From Leucoraja erinacea (taxonomy: Eukaryota): DNA of 64,000 nucleotides. The stretch lies in contig NC_073386.1 of the NCBI RefSeq assembly GCF_028641065.1, forward strand, positions 26,040,001 to 26,104,000. The letters run 5' to 3'. Position 1 is the first letter of the stretch. Each line of letters begins with the position of its first letter. Of the stretch, positions 91 to 54,952 are shown one piece after another. Below the pieces are notes generated by a model. It ran no database searches. It was not told the origin of the DNA and saw only the letters and a list, made by a program, of their open reading frames with translations. Position numbers and translations under genes: made by a program.

Positions 91-1028
91 ATTGGTTTAT
101 TCTTGTCACGGTGAGAACCTTGTTTTGTATGCTATACCAGTGGCAGTTAATAGCTGAGTCTCACGTACGAGTTGACACAAGAGGTACCCCGAGTTAAAAC
201 TCGTGGTAATAATGTACGATTAACGTACGGAACTCGTGGACGCAACTTAGAGACTCGTGGCACTAACGGCAGGTACTCGTGAAACTTGTCAACTCTTGCA
301 AAAAATCAAGCATGTTTAAAAATTTCCACGAGTCAATTTTACTCTTGTGGTTAAGAATTGAAACATTTTAACTTGTTGTAAGAACGTAGTGGCCCGTGCG
401 TTTACCTTAGTGTATCGTGAGTCTACCATGGGAACTCTTTAACTCAGCGGGCAGGCAGCAGCAGATTGTCACTACCTTCAGTTTCCCAGCGACAATCACC
501 TGCCATAACGCGAGAGAGATCATGCACTGTTGTTGGTCTCCTTTGCACGTCGGTGTTTCTGTCCTTCACCACTCATTGTTGGCCCTATCTGTCACCACCC
601 CCACCTACACCCCTCTGCTTCCCGGCCATGTGTGTGACCCCTTCCCTTCCCTCTCCAGCTCCCCGTCCATTGCACCAGCGCGGGGGCTTTGCACTGTCTT
701 CACGTCGGCGATGCCTGCAGGTCAGTGCCAGTCGCCCCGGGGCAGTTGCTCCCTTCAGTTTCCCAGGGGGTCGGGATGGGACGGGAGTTGGGAGGGAAAG
801 GTGGGGGGGGGGGGTTGGGTGGGTTAGGTGAGCAGGAGAGTGGGGTTGTTTGCAGAGGGAGGGGGCAAGGGCAGTACAGTTCACAGTCTCGGCTCCTGTC
901 CAGGGGGGTGGCCGGAGACGTCAGGACCAACGGGCCACCGACCCCCAGGTCCACTAGGCCCACTGCAAGCACGGAGAACCCAGAGACCCACAGCCAACAG
1001 CAACTCCAGAGGAAGCCGCTCCCCGATG

Positions 1029-1064
1029 GGCCGCTACGGCGACAAGTGGCAGTTCGCCCACAGC
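1029..1064 (+). pseudogene. Fragment of ZFP36/TIS11-family CCCH zinc finger 1
   Basis: Translates GRYGDKWQFAHS versus family CKYGDKCQFAHG; both Cys codons are altered. Confidence 0.6.
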
Positions 1065-1159
1065 CCGAGCCTGCAGCCCTTCACCTCCACCCCTTCACCT
1101 CCACCCCTCTCCCCTCAGTCCGACACCGAGACTTCCTGCTGAAGATGAGCAGCTGCCGG

Positions 1160-1235
1160 CTGGATGAAGTGGCAGCCGGTACCGTAGGGGCAGAAGCTGA
1201 TGGTGTGCAAGGTACGTCTTGTTCTTGGGGTGGTG
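1160..1235 (-). pseudogene. Fragment of ZFP36/TIS11-family CCCH zinc finger 2
   Basis: Reads HHPKNKT-[11-nt deletion]-TLHTISFCPYGTGCHFIQ versus family [29 protein letters not shown]. Confidence 0.8.
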
Positions 1236-2084
1236 GATGAGGGTTTCAAACAAATCATAAGTATAACTGCTCTGGCATTGGATGGTGCGCATTTTCCCTT
1301 TGTAGGTCACATCAATAGATGCGGCCGCGCTGAATTCTATCTTTAAAACAAAGCCACAGGATGGAGAGGTCTTCTTTAACACTGTTGCTTATTAAAACAT
1401 AACACTGTTGCTTATTAAAACAAACCTTCAATCAGGATTGGCACAAGAGTAACTCGGGAAACAAACTTGGAACATCGCAGAAATGACAAGCAAACGGCAA
1501 ACTTGTCATACCCGTGGGAACTCGGTTAAACTCTTGATCATACACTTGCAATCTCGTACACAACCACGAGTCTTTCACTTGGGGCACCTCTTGTGTCAAC
1601 TCGCAACGTGAGACTCAGCTTTAAGACTTTCAGTTTGGCACGTGGATGTGCAGAGAATGGAGGGATAAGAAACACATTCATGCAAAGGAGATAAGTTTTA
1701 TATGTTCAGCAGTCATTATGGGCCAAAAATCCTGTTCCTGTACTGTAAAATCCTTTGATCTATGCACGTTTTCAGCTTAAGTTTAAATATTAACCAATTT
1801 TATTTTAGAAATATATTTGAATATTAGAGATATATGAAGGTTGTTTAAATCTCCACGTTTTTCCAGTGTCAATGCCTTCGGCCTTGTGAGCTGTCAATAA
1901 TGAGAAAATGTGACCAATTGTGCTCCTTTGTCAGTGTTTATCATCGCCTACAACAGGGCAATGGGACGTGCCCAGGAGGTCAGGTTGTACTCGTAGGGAA
2001 AGAATGAGCCAAAATCGCAGAGCCCATACCTGCACCACCCACTAGACTCTTGAGATATGATGGGCTAGCAATATAACCAACCAC

Positions 2085-4105
2085 AATATACAGACACCGT
2101 GACGTCATATGTCAGTTTTTGTGAAGACAGTTGCATACGGATCAGGTTCAACAACGACAAGCCTTCGTTTACAGCAGAACTCAGCCAGTCTAAAGATGAG
2201 GCCGACAGGAGCATGCAGATATCTACAGGCAGGCCAAGTACAAGCTGAGAAGCGGAATGCCAAGGAAAGGTACTCTGAGAAGTTGAGGACCAAGTTCTCA
2301 GCTAATGACTCATCTTCAGTGTGGAAGGGCTTGCAAGAAATCACCAGCTACAAGAAGAATGCCCCCCGCTCTTTGGACAACCGTCAGCTGACTAACAACC
2401 TGAATGAGTTCTACTGCAGGTTTGAAAGGCAGAAACATAACCCAGGTACCCCTTCTCTCCCCTCCCCCACCCATCCCTCCCCAATCAACCCTCACACTAA
2501 TTACTGCCTGATTCCAGTCTGCAAACACTGGGCTCTCCTCCACTATCTCCCCACCCCCTAACCTTCTTGCTGCCCAATATCAGTCTGGCCACTTCTCCAT
2601 CACTAACAATAGAAATTGAGGAGGCGCAAAAGCTATTCAGGAGACAAAGCTGGTAATCTCCAGGGCCGGACAATGTTTCCCCCTCTACCCTCAAGCTCTG
2701 TGCCGAACAGCTGGCACCAGTCTTCACAGCCATTTTCAACCAGTCCCTGCAAACCTGCACTGTCCATGTCTGCTTCAAAGTCTCCACTATTGGCCCTGTA
2801 CCAAAAAAGTTAAGGATTACTTGTCTTAATGACTACAGGCCTGTCGTACTGACCTCTGTAATCATAAAAAACCCTTGAAAGACTTGTGCTGGCCCAGCTG
2901 AAAATTATCAAAACCCCCTGCTGGACCCCCTGCAGTTTGCATACCAGGCCAATAGATCAGTGGATGACACAGTCAACCTAGGCCTGCACTTCATCCTCCA
3001 GCACCTAGACTGCCAAGGGACCTATGCAAGAATTCTGTTTGGATTTTAGCTCTGCATTTAACACCATTGTGCCAGAGCTACGACACTCCAAACTCTCCCA
3101 GTTAACTGTGCCCGAACCCCTCTGTCAGTGTATCACCAACTTCCTGACAGACTGGAAGCAGCTTGTGAGGCTGGGAAAGTACACCCGCTGACCCTCGGCC
3201 TAGGAGCACCGCAAAGCTGCATACTCTCCCCTCTCCTTTACTCTCTTTACACCAAAGACTGCACTTCCACAGACTCCTCTGTCAAGCTCCTCGAGTTTGC
3301 GGACGACACAATCCTGATTTGACTGATCCAGGATGGGGAGGAATCTGCCTATAGACGGGAAGTGACACAGCTGGCGTCCTGGTGCCATCACAACAACTTG
3401 GAGCTCAATGCTCAACAGTGGAATTGATTGTAGATTTTAGGAGAGCCTCATTATCAACAACACTACAGTCACAACTGTGCAGTCATATACGTTCATCGGA
3501 ACCATCATCTCCAGGGGCCTTAAATAGGAGGCCACCATCTACTCCACAGTCAAAAAGGCCCAACAGAGGATGTACTTCCTGTGGCAGCTGAGGAAACACA
3601 ACTTGCCACAGGCAATGATGGTCCAGTTTTACACTACCATCATAGAGTCTGTCCTCGCCTTCTCCAGCATGGTCTGGTTTGGCTCGGCCACCAAGCATGA
3701 CATCCGGAGGCTACAGCGTATCATTCGATCAGCCAAGAAAGTTGTTGGCTGCAACCTTCCCCCTATTGACGAACTGTACACTGCAAGGGCCAGGAAGTGA
3801 GTGGGTAAGATCATCTCTGACCTCTCTCACCCTGGCCACCAACCCTCTGAAGTACTTTCCTCTGGGAGGCGACTCGGGACTATCAAAGCCACCACAGCCA
3901 GGCATGAAACAGTTTCTTCCCACGTGCAGCAGGTCCACTCAACAGCTAAAAGTCTGTAGCTTTTTTCTCTATTGTGCTTTATTTTCACATGTTTAAATTA
4001 TAATGTTTTATTTTTAATTGTCTGGTGTATATTGTGTTTTTACCATCTGTGAGCAAAGTACCAAGTCATATTCCTTGTATGTATACATACTTGGCCAATA
4101 AAATT
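2085..4105 (+). mobile_element. 5'-truncated Rex1/Babar-type LINE, degraded RT
   Basis: Frameshifted motifs [49 protein letters not shown] and QRMYFLWQLRK; AT-rich 3' end with AATAAA near 4097. Confidence 0.85.
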
Positions 4106-30891: not shown

Positions 30892-31410
30892 TTTGATTAA
30901 TAGTTTCTTTATTGTTGAAGAAAAAACAGTAAGATATCCATCCAACATTCCTTCACTCTTACATTTTAAACTTCATCAAACTTCAGCTTATGGCTTAGAA
31001 ATGTTAGAAAACTCTCATGGTCAAAAAGCTATACCCTCATCCATGGTCCTCCAAACTAGACTAACTCGCTAACAGCTTCTGCGCAAGAGAACCCAGCAGC
31101 AAACAAGCCACTGACTATGTAATAAATCCCACCCACATAATTACGGGTAGACTAAAATTTAAAGACAAATGCCATAATTAATGACACGCAAAATAAAGCC
31201 AATGGTCTTTGCAGATTGTATTTGTTGCTAATAATTGATATCGATATATATGTAAAAATAAACTGAATTGATTTTCAGAATGTGATGACAACGATATCTT
31301 AATAACATATTGGCACTGCAAGTGCAAAATATATTGACAATGTTTTTTCTATCTGCACTCTATAAGAACAGTTTGTAGTTTCCTGTTCAGCTCTCTTTTT
31401 AATGTTTCAG

Positions 31411-31557
31411 TATCCCAGCGAGGAAGACCAGATAGAGTGGGCCAAAAGGGAAAGTGAACGAGCAGAGGAGGAGCGACTAGCCAGATTAAACCAACAAGAA
31501 CAAGAGGATTTGGAACTAGCTATAGCACTTAGTAAATCTGAAATATCTGAAGCATGA
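31411..31557 (+). CDS. EPS15: EPS15 terminal coding exon, tandem UIMs and stop
   Basis: YPSEEDQIEWAKRESERAEEERLARLNQQEQEDLELAIALSKSEISEA*, nearly identical to the EPS15 C-terminus; tttcag acceptor. Confidence 0.98.
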   Translation, partial: YPSEEDQIEWAKRESERAEEERLARLNQQEQEDLELAIALSKSEISEA

Positions 31558-47494: not shown

Positions 47495-48012
47495 ACATAG
47501 AAACATAGAAATTAAGTGCAGGAGTTGGCCATTCGGCCCTTCTAGCCTGCACCACCATTCAATATGATCATGGCTGATCATCCAACTCAGTATCCTGTAC
47601 CTGCCTTCTCTCCATACCCCCTGATCCCTTTAGCCGCAAGGGCCACATCTAACTCCCTCTTAAATATAGCCAATGAACTGACCTCAACTACCTTCTGTGG
47701 CAGAGAATTCCAGAGATTCACCACTCTGTGTGTGAAAAAATGTTTTTCTCACCTCTGTCCTAAAGGATTTCCCCCTTATCCTTAAACTGTGACCCCTTGT
47801 TCTGGTCTTCCCCAACATCCGGAACAATCTTCCTGCATGTAGCCTGTCCAACCCCTTAAGAATTTTATACGTTTCTATAAGATACCCCCTCAATCTTCTA
47901 AAATCTAGCGAGTACAAGGTGAGTCTATCCAGTCTTTCTTCATTTGAAAGTCCTGACATTCCAGGAATCAGTCTGGTGAACCTTCTCTGTACTCCCTCTA
48001 TGGCAACAATGT
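47495..48012 (-). mobile_element. CR1 3' fragment (sister copies at 45817-46153 and 50235-50745)
   Basis: AIEGVQRRFTRLIPGMSGL...TRGHSLRIRG; same junction to purine-rich DNA in all three copies. Confidence 0.9.
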
Positions 48013-51000
48013 ATTTGAGCATTGGGCATTGTGACATCACACGATGGAACGTTCACCATGGGCTGGGGCTCCTGCAAAGGCATATGTAAATGAATCCATT
48101 CCGATTGGACATATGTGAACATTGGGCATTGTGACATCACACAATGGAACGTTCACCAGGGGCTGGGGCTGGTGCTGCTTCTATGGGTGAGAAGCCAGTT
48201 TATTTTTGAAATATTGGGGTGGGGGGGGGAAGGATTTGATTAAAAACGTGTACTTAAACACGACAAAATGTAATGAGGAGCGGATACTTAGAAAGAAAAG
48301 TGAAATCTCTACCGAAATGGAAAAGATGTCGGCGATTCTGCGTCTGGTTTCGGAGTTGCAGTGAATCAAAGGAAGAAATGCAGCCGGCAGCCGTCCATGT
48401 AAATGGATCCATTCCGATTGGACATCTGCGAGCATTGGGCATTGCGATTGGACATCTGCGAGCATTGGGCATTGTGACATCACACGATGGAAATGAATCA
48501 AAAGGCAGAAAGGCCACCGGACGGCAGCCGGTCGGATGGCACGAGAGTTTTATATATTAACTAGACCAAGTGCAGACCCGTTGGGTCTGCTCCCCCAATG
48601 GTGTGATCCTCCAACCCAATATTCCACCATGCACCCATCTCCTCCAACGGAACTGAACCCGTTCCCAAATGTAAGATTTCAGCACTCCTCTGCCTCCCTC
48701 AGCAGTGGATTAAAAAACAATTCCAATTTCACCTCCCTGCCTGCTGCAGCAGTTCCAATTGCAATACCAATTGGCCCTCCCCCTCCTGTTGAAGCACTTG
48801 CTGTGATATCCCATTGAGGTGAAAAGTTCAGAGTGTTCCTGTCTTGCAACTTAGTTTTGAAGTGTGTTGTAAGCTGATAGGAAGGAGCAGCGAATAGAAA
48901 GGCAGCCGGCAGCCGGACGGACGGACGGCAGCGGCAGCCACAGACTTTTATATAATAACCAAGCGGGTCCCGATGGGTCCCGTCCCCTCAACGCGCGGGG
49001 GGGTGGGGGTGGCGGGGAGGCATGCGGCATCACACATACACTAACCACCCCCCACACACACGGGGGGGAGGGAGGGGGAGGGGGGGGAATGGAGGGGGGG
49101 GAGAGAAGAGCGGGGAGGGGGAGGGAGGGGGAGAGAGAGAGAGGGGATAGAGGAGGGGGGATAGAGGAGGGTGGAGAGAGGAGGGGGGGAGAGATCAGGG
49201 GGAAGGATGGTGGTAGGAGGGAGGGAGGGGTTAGAGAAAGGAGAGAGGGGGAGGGGGGGGGGAGAGTGAGTAGAGGAGAGAGGAGGGGGTTAAAAGGGAG
49301 TGGGGAGATGGCGGAAAGGGAGGGTGGGGGGGAGAGGAGAGGGAGAGGAGAGAGAGTAGAGGGGGGGATAGAGGAGGGGGAGGGGGAGAAGAGGAGGGGG
49401 GTGAGAGGTGAAGTGGGGGAGGGGAGGAGGTGAGCCGGGCGAGCGAGGGTGCTGCAAAAAGCGGAAAGAGCCTGGGGAGAGAGAGAGAGAGAGCTCTAGT
49501 CCAGGGCCCGACTCGTAAACAGCTCTCGGGTTCTCTCTGGAAACCCAAGCCGAGGCACGAGCGTACTGCATGTCGCTCTTAGTGACGTCATCACTCGGGC
49601 GCTCCTCGGCATCTCTCGGGTTCTCTCGGGGAAACCGGAGCCGAAGCGCGAGGGCACTGTGTTTTTTCAATCCAGAGCCCTGGGGGCGGACGGCCAGCCA
49701 AGTGCTTGTCGACTGTGAGTCGGGAGGCGTCAAAATGACTGTGAGTTTAGGGGGGGGAGAAGAGGGGAGGGAGGGGAGGGAGAGGAGGAGGAGGAGGTAT
49801 CACACTCAAATTAACCACCCCCCAAACACAGGTGGGGGGAGGGGGGGGGAGGGGAGGGGGAGGGAGGGAGAGGAGGAGGAGGTAACGGGACAGATTTGGA
49901 AGGGAAAGGAGAGCGGGGGGTAGGGGGTGAGAGAGGGGGATGGGGAGAGAGATGTGGGGGGGGGGGGGGGGATGGCGAGGGAGGGGAGGAGGGAGGGGGA
50001 GAGGGGTGGGGGGAGAGAGGGGAAAGAGTGGGAGGGAGAGTGGAGGGGGAGATGTGGAAGAGTGGGGAGGGAGGGGAGGGAGGAGGAGAGGGGTAGGGGG
50101 AGTGATGGAAGAGGGACAGAGGGGTAGGAGGAGGAAGGCGGGGGGGGTGGAGAGAGGGAAGGGGGTGGGGTAGAGAGGGAAGGGGGGGGGGGAGAGAGGG
50201 GATGGGTGGGAGAGGGAGAGGGGTGAGGAGAGGGAAACAGAAATTAAATGCAGTAGTAGGCCATTCGGCCCTTCGAGCCTGCACCACCGTTCAATATGAT
50301 CATGGCTGATCATCCAACTCGGTATCCTGTACCTGCCTTCTCTCCATACCCCCTGATCCCTTTAGCCACAAGGGCCACATCTAACTCCCTCTTAAATATA
50401 GCCAGTGAACTGGCCTCAACTACCTTCTGTGGCAGAGAATTCCAGAGATTTACCACTCTCTGTGTGAAAAATGTTTTTCTCATCTCATCTAAAGAATTTC
50501 CCCCTTATCTTTAAACTGTGACCCCTTGTTCTGGACTTCCCCAACATCTGGAACAATCTTCCTGCATCTAGCCTGTCCAACCCCTTAAGAATTTTGTACG
50601 TTTCTATAAGATCTGCCCTCAATCTTCTAAATTCTAGCGAGTACAAGCCGAGTCTATCTAGTCTTTCTTCATATGAAAGTCCTGACATCCCAGGAATCCG
50701 TCTGGTGAACCTTCTCTGTACTCCCTCTATGGCAAGAATATCTTTGAGCATTGGACATTGTGACATCACACGATGGAATGTTCACCATGGGCTGGGGCTC
50801 CTGCAAAGGCATATGTAAATGAATCCATTCCGATTGGACATCTGTGAACATTGGGCATTGTGACATCACACAATGGAAACCTTCACCAGGGGCTGGGGCT
50901 GGGGCTGCTTCTATGGGTGAGAAGCCAGTTTATTTTTGAAATATTGGGGGGTGGGGGGAGGATTTGATTAAAAACGTGTACTTAAACACGACGAAATGTA

Positions 51001-51901
51001 ATGAGGAGCGGATACTTAGAAAGAAAAGTGAAATCTCTACTGAAATGGAAAAGATGTCGGCGATTCTGCTTCTGGTTTCGGAGTTGCAGTGAATCAAAGG
51101 AAGAAATGCAGCCGGCAGCCATCCATGTAAATGGATCCATTCCAATTGGACATCTGCGAGCATTGGGCATTGCGATTGGACATCTGCGAGCATTGGGCAT
51201 TGTGACATCACACGATGGAAACGAATCAAAAGGAAGAAAGGCAGCCGGACGGCAGCCGGTCGGATGGGACAAGAGTTTTATATATTAACTAGACCAAGTG
51301 CAGACCCGTTGGGTCTGCTCCCCCAATGGTGTGATCCCCCAACCCAATATTCCACCATGCACCCATTTCCTCCAATGGAACTGAAGCCGTTCTCAAAAGT
51401 AAGATTCCAGCACTGCCCTGCCTCCCTCAGCAGTGGATTAAAAAACAAATCCAATGGCACCTTCTCTGCCTGCTGCAGCAGTGAAAAGTTCAGAGTGTTC
51501 CTGTCTTGCAACTTTGTTTCGAAGTGTGTTGGAAGCTGGCATGTAAATGGAGAAGCCAGTTTCTTTTTGAAATACTTGGGGGTGGGGGGGGGGGGGGGGA
51601 GAAGGATTTGATTAAAAACGTGTACTTCAACACGACAAAATGAAATGAGGAGCGGATACTTAGAAAGAAAAGCGAAATCTCTACCGAAATGGAAAATATC
51701 TCGGAGATTGAGCGTCTGGATTGGGCGTGGCAATGAATCAAAGGAAGAAATGCAGCCGGCAGCCGTACATGCAAATGAATCCATTCCGATTGGACATCTG
51801 CGAGCATCGGCCATTCCGATTGGACATCTGCGAGGATCGGGCACGAATCGAAAGGCAGGAAGGGCGCCGGACGGCAGTCGGTCGGATGGCCCCAGAGTTT
51901 T

Positions 51902-51950
<49 letters not shown>
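51902..51950 (+). repeat. (GATA)n microsatellite
   Basis: ~12 perfect units at the Helitron-like 5' end. Confidence 0.95.
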
Positions 51951-51954
51951 GAAG

Positions 51955-53097
51955 CAGGGGCGGAAATCCCGGGGGGGGGGGGGGGGGGGCAGGGGGTGGG
52001 GACCTCCCCCCCCCCCCCCCATTTATTGTAATCAGGATTTTAAAACCCGGTGAAATCTCCGCTTTCCGCGATACAGTGGGGGTGGGACTAATGATCGAAG
52101 GCACCGATTGGACGAGAGACGTCGCTCAGCTGGCAGTTGGGGGGGGGGGGGACCATGATGATTCAGCGCGATCATTGGAGGAGGGAGAAGTCCCTGGAGC
52201 CAAGATCATAGAGCGGAGCTTGAATTTCTTGCCTGGGTCGTAGGTCACAAGCGAAAAACACTCTCCCTGGACACAGACCTGCACCTCATCCGCAGCCAGG
52301 ATCGATCCCGGGTCTCTGGTGCTGCAATCGTTGTCGAACCACCACTGGACCATCCCCGTCCCCACCCAAATGCCCCCATGCCTGGAGGTGGCCAGAGACG
52401 TCGGGAGTCAGATGGAAGGGGGAATGCCCCCAGGCCCAGAGAGGCAGCGCTAAATCCAGCTCAACTCTGCCTGTTAACTCTCCAGCCCTACCTGGACTTA
52501 CGGAAACGACAGCCCAGGTTTACGGCCAGCGCAGAGAAGCAGCGCTAGCTCCACTGCTCTGGACTGCTGCCCCGTCAGTCCAGGCAGGGCTGTAAGTTAA
52601 CCCGGCGAGACAGGCAGAGTTGAGCTGGATTTAGCGCTGCTTCTCTGCGCTGGCTGTGGGCCTGGGGGCGCCGCTCCCGTCTGATGTTAGGATTATTTAA
52701 AACTCCAAACATTAAGTCACACAGTTGGGTTTTAAATAAGTTAGAGTCATGGAGATCATAGAGTGGAGCTTGAATTGGCCCGATCGTGGTGTTTTTCACC
52801 GCCCAGCCTGGCACAGCCGGGAACTTCCATCGCCCAGCGGTCAAATTGCTGCGTCGAAGCGATCGAGGCTCCCGATGTTGAACCCCCCACCGGGGGATCG
52901 AAGGCCCCATGATTTGGGGCGGTCGAACCTGCTGTTGCTGGAGTTCGGAGTCGGTCACCAACCAGGTCAGCTCCCGATGTTACGTTCAAAGCAAAGATAC
53001 TAGATAGAGCCCACGCCCGAAGCCTCACTTGTGTGCACACGTGCGGCCGCCAAGGAATTGTGTCCCCCCCATGTTTTGGCAGCGATTTCCGTGCCTG
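51955..53097. mobile_element. hAT-like non-autonomous element
   Basis: Ends CAGGGGCGGAAAT / ATTTCCGTGCCTG with G/C-tract subtermini; TSD not preserved. Confidence 0.5.
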
Positions 53098-53869
53098 AAG
53101 GCAAGCACGGGTTACTGATTGTGGATGATCAGCCATGGTCACAATGAATAGGAATGTTGCAAAATTTTAAGATTTAAAAAATCAAGCCTCTAATTTATCC
53201 CATCAGATAAAGCACAAAAATAACTTTAATTTGATACCTAATTCACTTTCATATATTCAGTATTAAAAAGGTTATGGTAATTTTCATACTCGGAAATTAG
53301 CTTCTTGTTTTTCCATTAACTTAACACAAAAGTTGTGATCGAGGACAGTCAATTGACATAAAAGCCCATAACTTTCTTTAAAAATAAGAGATCTTAATGA
53401 AATTTTCAGTTATTATAGATTGAAACATTCTGAAACAAATATGATACATCTTACTTGGATGACCTGAAATTAAAGCATATAATTAGTTAGTTACCTAATT
53501 GTAGCTAATTACAAAATTGACCAGTGTGACGGAAATAGTAATAAACACCCAGACTGCCTTGAAAATTCAAAAATGTGATATTCTCAAGATCAGAACTTTA
53601 ATATTATTGTAACGTTAAAATAAATAGTAAATACCCAACAAAAAATTCATGTTCACCAGTGTATTTATTATTAAGAGTGAATCTAAATTCAAATACTAGA
53701 TCTAAACATATATCCCATTCTTAAGAAAAGGTTACAAAAAAATTTAAATAGCCAAATTTAAAAAAATAAACAATAACACAAAATATAGATGAGTTAGATG
53801 TTCTTATGACATGATTGTGCAATAAAATAATGAATTAGGTTATCTTGAGTGTGGATTGTGATAGATCGT

Positions 53870-54185
53870 AATGTTGGGGAAATCCAGAACCAGGGGTCAC
53901 AGTTTAAGAATAAGGGGTAAGCCATTTAGAATGGAGACAAGGAAACGCTTTTTCTCACAGAGAGTGGTTAGTCTGTGGAATTCTCTGCCTCGGAGGGCGG
54001 TGGCAGGTTCTCTGGATGCTTTCAAGAGGGAGCTAGATAGGGCTCTTAAAAATAGCGGAGTCGGGATATGGGGAGAACGCAGGAACGGGGTACTGATTGG
54101 GGATGATCAGCCATGATCACATTGAATGGCGGTGCTGGCTCGAAGGGCCGAATGGCCTACTCCTGCACCTATTGTCTATTGTCCA
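53870..54185 (+). mobile_element. CR1 LINE 3' fragment
   Basis: MLGKSRTRGHSLRIRGKPF; (CTATTGT)n tail. Confidence 0.85.
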
Positions 54186-54418
54186 TTGGCACACCAAGTG
54201 ATGATACTCAAGCTCGCCTTTGCTCACTGGGTTCCTTGTTCGTCAGCTACCTGTCAGGTCACCAGGCTCGTGTGCTGAATTATCGAAGTTTGTGAGTTTT
54301 GGCTTATTTGATTAACTTACCTTTGCATTTGAGTCCAGTCTTTCTCCTCCAGGTGCTTATCAAAAATTTATTACCTCCGCCTTAAAAATATTCACAGACT
54401 GCTCTGAGGAGAACAGTA

Positions 54419-54952
54419 TCATAGAAACATAGAAACATAGAAAATAGGTGCAGGAGTAGGCCATTCGGCCCTTCGAGCATGCACCGCCATTCAATATGAT
54501 CATGGCTGATCATCAAACTCAGTACCCTGTACCTGCTTTCTCTCCATACCCTCTGATCCCTTTAGCCACAAGGGCATCATCTAACTCCCTCTTAAATATA
54601 GCCAATGAACTGGCCTCAACTACCTTCTGTGGCAGAGAATTCCAGAGATTCAACGCTCTCTGTGTAAAAAATGGTTTTCTCATCTCAGTCCTATAAGATT
54701 TCCCATTTATCCTTAAACTGTGACCCCTTGTTCTGGACTTCCCCAACATCGGGAACAATCTCCCTGCATCTAGCCTATCCAACCCCTTAAGAATTTTGTA
54801 AGTTTCTATAAGATTCCCCCCTTAATCTTCTAAATTCTAGCAAGTACAAGCCAAATCTATCCAGTCTTTCTTCATATGAAAGTCCTGACATCCCAGGAAT
54901 CAGTCTGGTGAACCTTCTCTGTACTCCCCCTCTGGCAATGTACTCCCTCTAT
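54419..54952 (-). mobile_element. CR1 LINE 3' fragment
   Basis: DRLDAGRLFPMLGKSRTRGHSL...; (ACATAGAA)n tail. Confidence 0.85.

Follow-up and report, generated by a model that had tools for sequence, protein, structure and literature searches.

A ZFP36 gene fragment likely relayed through three groups of cut-and-paste transposons in a skate genome

The window analyzed here, a 64,000-nucleotide stretch of DNA (G000:C10:26,040,001-26,104,000) from a 2.19-Gb genome, carries near its start a non-autonomous Harbinger-type element with pieces of the ZFP36 gene in its interior. On the evidence laid out below, it is quite likely that these pieces are neutral cargo and that they reached the element second-hand: the cargo would have been relayed from the host gene to an ISL2EU-type family (family A), from there to the PIF/Harbinger-type family of the window element (family B), and then on to a pogo/Tigger family (family C).

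The window element and its host-derived pieces

The element spans 151..1621 and is bounded by TAA target-site duplications (148..150 and 1622..1624, read from the sequence) and by terminal inverted repeats (TIRs) of ~57 bp (152..207 on the + strand and 1563..1620 on the - strand) that are 89.7% alike. These boundaries confirm the 1.47-kb element with ~56-bp TIRs and TAA flanks described earlier from the letters of the window alone (the sequence-only reading). The GC-rich interior noted there was found as well (GC 0.61-0.68 over 601-1200), as were the finger peptides on the strands assigned to them, with GRYGDKWQFAHS on the + strand at 1029-1064 and HPKNKT and TLHTISFCPYGTGCHFIQ on the - strand in two frames.

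The window copy is an internally deleted, rearranged form of a ~2.4-kb master element. Its left end region (160..439, +) is homologous to the ends of autonomous Harbinger elements, being 71-73% alike over 200-280 bp to L110, L111, and L113, as measured with the sibling copy L062 and with the window copy against L097. The left arm of the long internal inverted repeat of family B follows (489..1070, +); the right arm has been deleted here, and in L062 the two arms (341-897 and 1010-1573) are 93% alike. Non-host sequence from the interior of family A (904..1029, +; patchy 70-95% matches to A copies) ends at a capture junction common to A, B, and C, with an in-frame ATG at 1026-1028. The first host-derived piece is the finger-1 tail in sense orientation (1030..1070, +; 90% over 31 nt to the donor gene), in which the last cysteine codon has become TGG and 4 nt are deleted. 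A second piece, overlooked in the sequence-only reading, lies at 1080..1160 (-) and holds the frameshifted C-terminal CNOT1-interacting motif, the stop codon, and the first 3'UTR bases; it is 82.7% alike over 81 nt to the donor, with no blastn match to the other two host paralogues. This motif matches the CNOT1-interacting peptide of TTP as PMC9476947 gives it. The third piece (1161..1243, -) comprises the linker and finger 2 (78.7% to the donor, E 3e-21), and is joined to the tail by a ~350-bp deletion; the 11-nt gap reported for its finger-2 region is indeed visible against the donor gene. The right end region (1449..1612, +) is 92.7% alike over 164 bp to an end beside a broken Harbinger transposase (L096/L105; DDE_Tnp_4).

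EH-domain exons are found on the + strand 45-60 kb upstream of the element (G000:C10:25.98-25.99 Mb), and DPF-rich and UIM-like exons lie downstream of it on the + strand within the window, so the element is intronic in an EPS15-type + strand gene, as had been proposed. The last coding exon (31366..31554, +) encodes the UIM-like tail, from which we take the gene to be of EPS15 type, and gave zero Pfam hits. Just 3' of the element, the + strand of the window holds a decayed non-LTR retrotransposon reverse-transcriptase region (2100-3980), presumably Rex1-like. Short matches to the family-A interior occur at 52271-52314 (86%) and 52641-52671 (97%), possibly from a cargo-free relative. Short peptide-like repeats within 47578-54581 (at 47.6, 48.4, 50.3, 51.1, and 54.5 kb) point to a tandemly duplicated block of about 2.7 kb.

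The ZFP36 matches are not due to chance, since the three blastn alignments between 451-1380 and the donor locus (86.0, 76.1, and 45.5 bits) far exceed the maximum of 100 shuffles (27.4 bits). A genome search uncovered three tandem-finger genes in the host. Two contain Tis11B_N and grouped with the L2 and L1 rows of a 28-protein tree; the third, an intact gene on contig C38 (L039) with tandem CCCH fingers and a C-terminal CNOT1 motif, lacks Tis11B_N and fell outside the L1 and L2 clades. Three of three tested family-A copies match L039 over 530-680 bp at 83-87%; the same copies match the paralogues L031 and L032 over only ~150 bp, plus a short weak tail match. On these comparisons, the donor is the third paralogue on C38 and not L1 or L2: the tail matches L039 only, the A copies match it over far longer stretches, and the tree agrees. 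The ZFP36L1/L2 source implied by the sequence-only reading was therefore rejected, and the L1/L2-like Ile in finger 2 arose by a change in a Thr codon of the donor. The named proteins most closely related to that of the donor are from skates and rays, and L039 is most likely the ZFP36/TTP orthologue, a name that we infer from a tree with no mammalian TTP row.

No zf-CCCH match passed the Pfam cut-off in the window copy's own frames (3 proteins). In four A and B copies, Pfam matches were to CCCH fingers only (49/85 six-frame ORFs), with no second captured protein domain. The 3-kb donor locus has no matches to A or B ends. With a host-derived interior between TIR-element ends and a parental locus free of the element, these elements would class as Pack-TIRs.

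The opposite orientation of the two fingers, noted in the sequence-only reading, is not a trait of the family. In sibling B copies, the finger-1 tail, linker, finger 2, and tail are contiguous on one strand; finger 1 was co-oriented in 15 of the 16 B loci with a finger-2/tail junction (two of the 16 scored by eye), and the sixteenth has lost finger 1. The second junction of the window copy (1243..1244) has one exact match in the genome, which is itself, and one match with two mismatches, equal to the control count. The opposite orientation is thus an accident private to this copy. Alignment to the donor revealed 4-nt microhomology (1067..1070) at the first junction of the inversion and 1-nt microhomology at the second, which fits a template switch; such a two-junction event would have inverted ~175 bp and deleted about 1 kb. 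At the second junction, the right arm is missing along with about 470 bp of unique interior.

Three families with one cargo

Many further zf-CCCH matches in the genome were copies of a ~1.3-kb element, family A. Its cargo is donor sequence that begins within finger 1 and ends shortly after the stop codon; in two copies (L036 and L046) it extends ~190 bases further into the 3'UTR, without poly-A. A 28-mer pattern gave 193 matches within two mismatches (control 0), a count that includes the donor and possibly its paralogues, and an A end was present in 29 of 30 sampled loci. AT occurred on both flanks in 14 of the 16 A copies with both ends, a further flanking A and T being common. The ends of A, which start with AA, are 80-88% alike to ends beside transposases of a THAP, HTH_Tnp_4, and DDE_Tnp_4 clade. 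L107, whose ORF has all three domains, is a cargo-free relative of A that holds the 5' flank of the cargo; the A left end is 80-87% alike to the ends beside L108 and L109, themselves 86-90% relatives of L107. Its AT duplication, its A|AT|T target, and a partner with THAP, HTH, and DDE domains would place A with ISL2EU among the PHIS groups, as the group descriptions in Han et al. (2015, PMC4482050) define it. No YqaJ hit was obtained in the ORF following an A-like end, only a weak SAP match (E 0.0036), and none of 30 DDE_Tnp_4 loci was an intact autonomous partner with both A ends.

In a survey of 40 A copies, 15 had no recognisable capture junction. An in-frame ATG stands at the junction in 22 of the 25 readable ones, and an unbroken frame with an intact finger 2 to the tail was found in none (0/25). 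Two of the 25 reach the tail motif through compensating frameshifts with finger 2 broken, and were not retained as intact truncated-TTP frames. In the A copy L143, a 28-bp tandem array has been amplified just 5' of the cargo junction (about 950-1300).

For family B, the best 40 of 6,644 first-look genome candidates were scored. Full copies reach ~2.4 kb. Their cargo sits at the apex of a ~1.2-kb internal inverted repeat or close to it, and their centres vary by deletions and inversions. Identical 3-mers flank 14 of 22 full copies (10 TAA, 2 TTA, and 2 TGA), and in the other eight the two flanks differ, in most cases TAA against TTA. A search with an exact 34-nt TIR pattern gave 105 genome matches (control 0), and sibling interiors carry the cargo, which goes against the refuting condition set by the sequence-only reading, that only this copy would hold the fragments. 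Of 42 sampled ends, 14 were exact, which puts the number of elements with such TIRs at an estimated ~160 or more. The B TIR is 57 bp long, its left end beginning with T in most copies and with A in some; for PIF/Harbinger, Han et al. (PMC4482050) give TIRs mostly under 60 bp with A or G as the usual first base. B ends are 70-73% alike to those of the Harbinger elements L110-L113, which encode DDE_Tnp_4 and, in L111-L113, an additional MADF ORF, and 94.5% alike over 164 bp to those of L105, whose transposase is broken. L111 has TTA flanks and the same 14 terminal bases as a B subfamily. With a 3-bp TWA duplication and a DDE plus Myb/SANT-type partner sharing its ends, B would fit PIF/Harbinger in the same group descriptions, in keeping with the multicopy, gene-carrying Harbinger-type element first proposed. 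NuwaII, given there a C|TNA|G target and GG termini, was rejected for B, where the flanking C and G are not fixed and the termini are not GG. As for A, the 30 DDE_Tnp_4 loci included no intact autonomous partner with both exact B ends.

Several features of these elements were observed in passing. The outer 6-8 terminal bases of B copies, L105, and L110-L113 are variable among copies, and even an element's own two ends can differ, and an inner 7-base terminal motif is conserved; in five to six of the 22 full B copies, the two TWA/TGA flanks are not identical and are either reverse complements of each other or unlike. The variable outer termini and unlike flanks may be relevant to how this transposase chooses where to cut. 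In the B copy L015, the right end (positions 1848-1995) is an inverted copy of the left 149 bases, making the element fully palindromic. Among L075-L104, DDE_Tnp_4 elements whose 440-540-aa frames are open form at least three clades; L075-L077 are >99% identical on three contigs, suggesting recent activity.

Contigs from three other organisms hold B-family sequence and the co-oriented junction. Among the 15 of 89 joints listed from other organisms' sequencing data, none skips the element, as an empty TAA site of the kind that the sequence-only reading had proposed to look for would. Contigs of two other organisms join 23-25 element bases to the right flank, below the 31-letter threshold.

With up to two mismatches allowed, a ZFP36-derived 33-mer specific to B and C gave 1,882 matches (control 0), and there are elements that hold two of them. 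To judge from these matches, the cargo is now at about 2,000 places in the genome. The sampled loci were mostly not B: 27 of 30 (24 distinct elements) belonged to family C, elements of 1.0-2.2 kb with 26-27-bp TIRs and TA on both flanks in all 19 distinct elements with both ends. The C-type TIR has 7,939 genome matches, not all with cargo. Its TIRs are 96% alike to those of L179, which has an intact 603-aa ORF (CENP-B_N, HTH_Tnp_Tc5, and DDE_1). Pogo/Tigger elements are defined by a TA duplication, short TIRs starting with CAG, and a transposase with a CENP-B-type HTH and DDE_1, and family C would fit this group by its duplications, TIRs, and partner transposase. A tRNA-like head considered for C was discarded: ARAGORN found 0 genes in 6 loci, Rfam gave sub-threshold hairpins only, and the stretch is the pogo left end. 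On a short contig (G000:C184:30001-50000; L211 and L212), tandem pogo transposase units with one intact 603-aa ORF are interleaved with cargo-bearing C copies.

The order of the hand-overs and the alternatives to it

The cargo was aligned in 55 rows (23 A, 15 B, 14 C, and 3 host), leaving out seven overlapping or duplicate loci and copies whose match missed the finger region; the sampled copies were best or first-listed matches rather than random ones. By column counts, the 11-nt deletion is present in 10/23 A, 15/15 B, 14/14 C, and 0/3 host rows, and a 4-nt deletion in 0/23 A, 14/15 B, and 14/14 C rows; a 13-nt deletion, read by eye, is present in 13/14 C and 0/15 B rows. The ~350-bp finger-2-to-tail deletion has 38 genome matches, of which the 20 sampled comprise four A-ended and 16 B loci. 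As donor sequence shrinks at each step, the order gene to A to B to C is well supported by these characters. The cargo tree placed B and C in one group (100/97) among the A rows, next to the L143 row at 85/78, in an alignment of 112 columns with an unsettled bootstrap in which the grouping of L143 with B and C was not starred. Cargo identity within families rises from A (0.86) through B (0.93) to C (0.965); terminal identity is 0.94 in both B and C and does not separate their ages.

In the first step of the relay, a non-autonomous ISL2EU-type element would have taken up a 560-730-bp part of ZFP36 exon 2 that starts within finger 1 and reaches the 3'UTR. Template switching during gap repair is the likely route, given the absence of poly-A and the existence of an A relative free of cargo. 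Family A then presumably spread and gathered deletions: the 11-nt and ~350-bp deletions would have arisen inside A after capture, since only part of A has them. A deleted A variant would next have given cargo and flanks, minus the A ends, to family B. The direction is shown by the junctions and deletions of A that B shares, which also speak against the direct capture by a Harbinger element assumed in the sequence-only reading. This transfer would have occurred by either nested insertion or template copying, between which the lack of any A terminus inside B does not decide. Family B would then have gained its 1.2-kb internal inverted repeat, and the position of the cargo at or near the apex is the likely reason why its centres are variably deleted or flipped.

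For the last step, two intermediates are at hand. In the 4-kb L206, a B-subfamily block of 1.27 kb (87-88%) and a frameshifted transposase region lie, in this order, between the left and right pogo ends; L207 resembles it, the B blocks of the two being 1.2-1.3 kb and 81-88% alike to B, and L208-L210 are without the block. One B terminus is kept within the pogo element and abuts a TTA that is present in cargo-free pogo, with one extra TTA. On this ground, C was likely derived from B by nested insertion of the ordinary kind and later deletions: a B copy would have landed at a TTA site and kept one end, and family C, with its high copy number, likely emerged once the other B end and the transposase had been lost. 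Each of the three families would have been mobilised in trans by the transposase of its own group.

It is unlikely that A and B instead acquired the cargo in two separate events from one shared non-mobile source (a rearranged ZFP36 pseudogene, for instance), leaving B to C as the only true hand-over. The A interior found in B amounts to only 300-400 bp and comes with no A end, and no exact A parent of B was sampled: L143 shares the TGG and the 11-nt deletion with B but no longer has the tail region, the linker is deleted differently in the four A loci that have the ~350-bp deletion, and no single sampled A copy has all the characters inherited by B. Yet the 11-nt deletion (10/23 rows) and the ~350-bp deletion (4/20 loci) occur in part of A and so postdate its capture, and the 5' flank of the cargo is also present in the cargo-free A relative, which favors the relay through A.

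The relay itself might not have been neutral, though we regard this as improbable. Palindromic B and C copies and the less-diverged A copies, which keep 23-59-nt exact matches to the donor, could feed dsRNA or small RNA against the TTP transcript, or a shortened TTP, one finger plus the CNOT1 tail, could once have been translated from the junction ATG of A. If true, skates would have some 2,000 transposon-borne copies of a sequence that regulates a master mRNA-decay gene. The cargo is probably neutral and functionless.

There is very little to recommend the proposal that a Harbinger element captured and inverted the fingers directly and that EPS15 pre-mRNA now supplies antisense or hairpin RNA regulating the ZFP36 transcript. 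The element is indeed intronic in a + strand gene, with about 165 nt of cargo antisense, and this part of the earlier claim stands; 34 21-mers match the donor within two mismatches. However, no 21-mer matches within one mismatch, the longest exact match is 16 nt, and the folding of a hairpin between the opposed fingers is at the level of shuffles (z 0.0). Only one copy has the inversion, and the cargo history runs via family A. Reads from the family were found on both strands in a single poly-A run from another organism (226 of 7.3 million reads), but only four of the 226 are at least 99% alike to the window copy, and reads on both strands show low transcription of the family, not regulation. 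Hardly credible is a retrocopy or later insertion of ZFP36 pieces into this one element: all captured sequence lies within one exon, which makes an mRNA template possible for the first capture, but the pieces are family-wide and the longest cargo (L036 and L046) stops inside the 3'UTR without poly-A.

Comparison with known gene-carrying elements

Each step of the proposed relay is a known process; what is new is the scale and the preserved chain through three groups. In the open-access literature, we found no report of this cargo or of one cargo across three TIR groups, and the families may be catalogued in Repbase or Dfam. The elements provide an ordered record, with surviving intermediates, of one host fragment passing through three cut-and-paste groups with different transposases to about 2,000 places in a vertebrate. 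They suggest that a cargo can outlive its first carrier by moving into younger families, and could serve to study how non-autonomous elements are scrambled by palindromes and template switching. Many A copies score as zf-CCCH and could mimic a ZFP36 family expansion or confuse read mapping and probes.

Animal Pack-TIRs, as the survey results of Tan et al. (2021, PMC8277862) present them, also carry pieces of host genes as GC-rich cargo, have distinct target-site duplications when multicopy, and have a proposed gap-filling or template-switch origin. In those results, which cover 100 UCSC genomes, hAT or TcMariner elements account for 87% of all cases, and multicopy Pack-TIRs are rare and small (four among 370, with examples of 3-5 copies), unlike the one cargo found here at ~2,000 places in three transposon groups. 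Turmoil-1 of C. elegans is likewise an animal Harbinger-superfamily element with a captured RNA-binding-domain fragment in long inverted repeats; in the part of Sela et al. (2008, PMC2572040) devoted to it, however, it is autonomous, with nine copies or fragments and a direct capture, and no hand-over to other families is described. Plant Pack-TYPE elements include Pack-PIF and Pack-Mariner, so PIF and Mariner groups carry coding DNA there too, some clusters exceeding 100 copies, but the capture is from chromosomal genes, and the sections of Gisby and Catoni (2022, PMC8903248) on these groups trace no single cargo across them. Bat Helitrons are closer in being vertebrate mobile DNA with a host fragment (NUBPL) at about a thousand copies and sequential captures; they differ, in the account of NUBPL and related captures by Thomas et al. 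(2014, PMC4224331), in being rolling-circle elements with several cargoes within one type, whereas here one cargo passed between cut-and-paste groups. ISL2EU elements, where Han et al. (PMC4482050) describe them, have a second ORF with a YqaJ exonuclease and TIRs usually starting with GG. Compared with these PHIS and pogo group descriptions, all three families are non-autonomous cargo carriers, and family A starts with AA rather than the usual GG and has no YqaJ ORF detected beside it, while the targets and partner transposases place each family with one known group.
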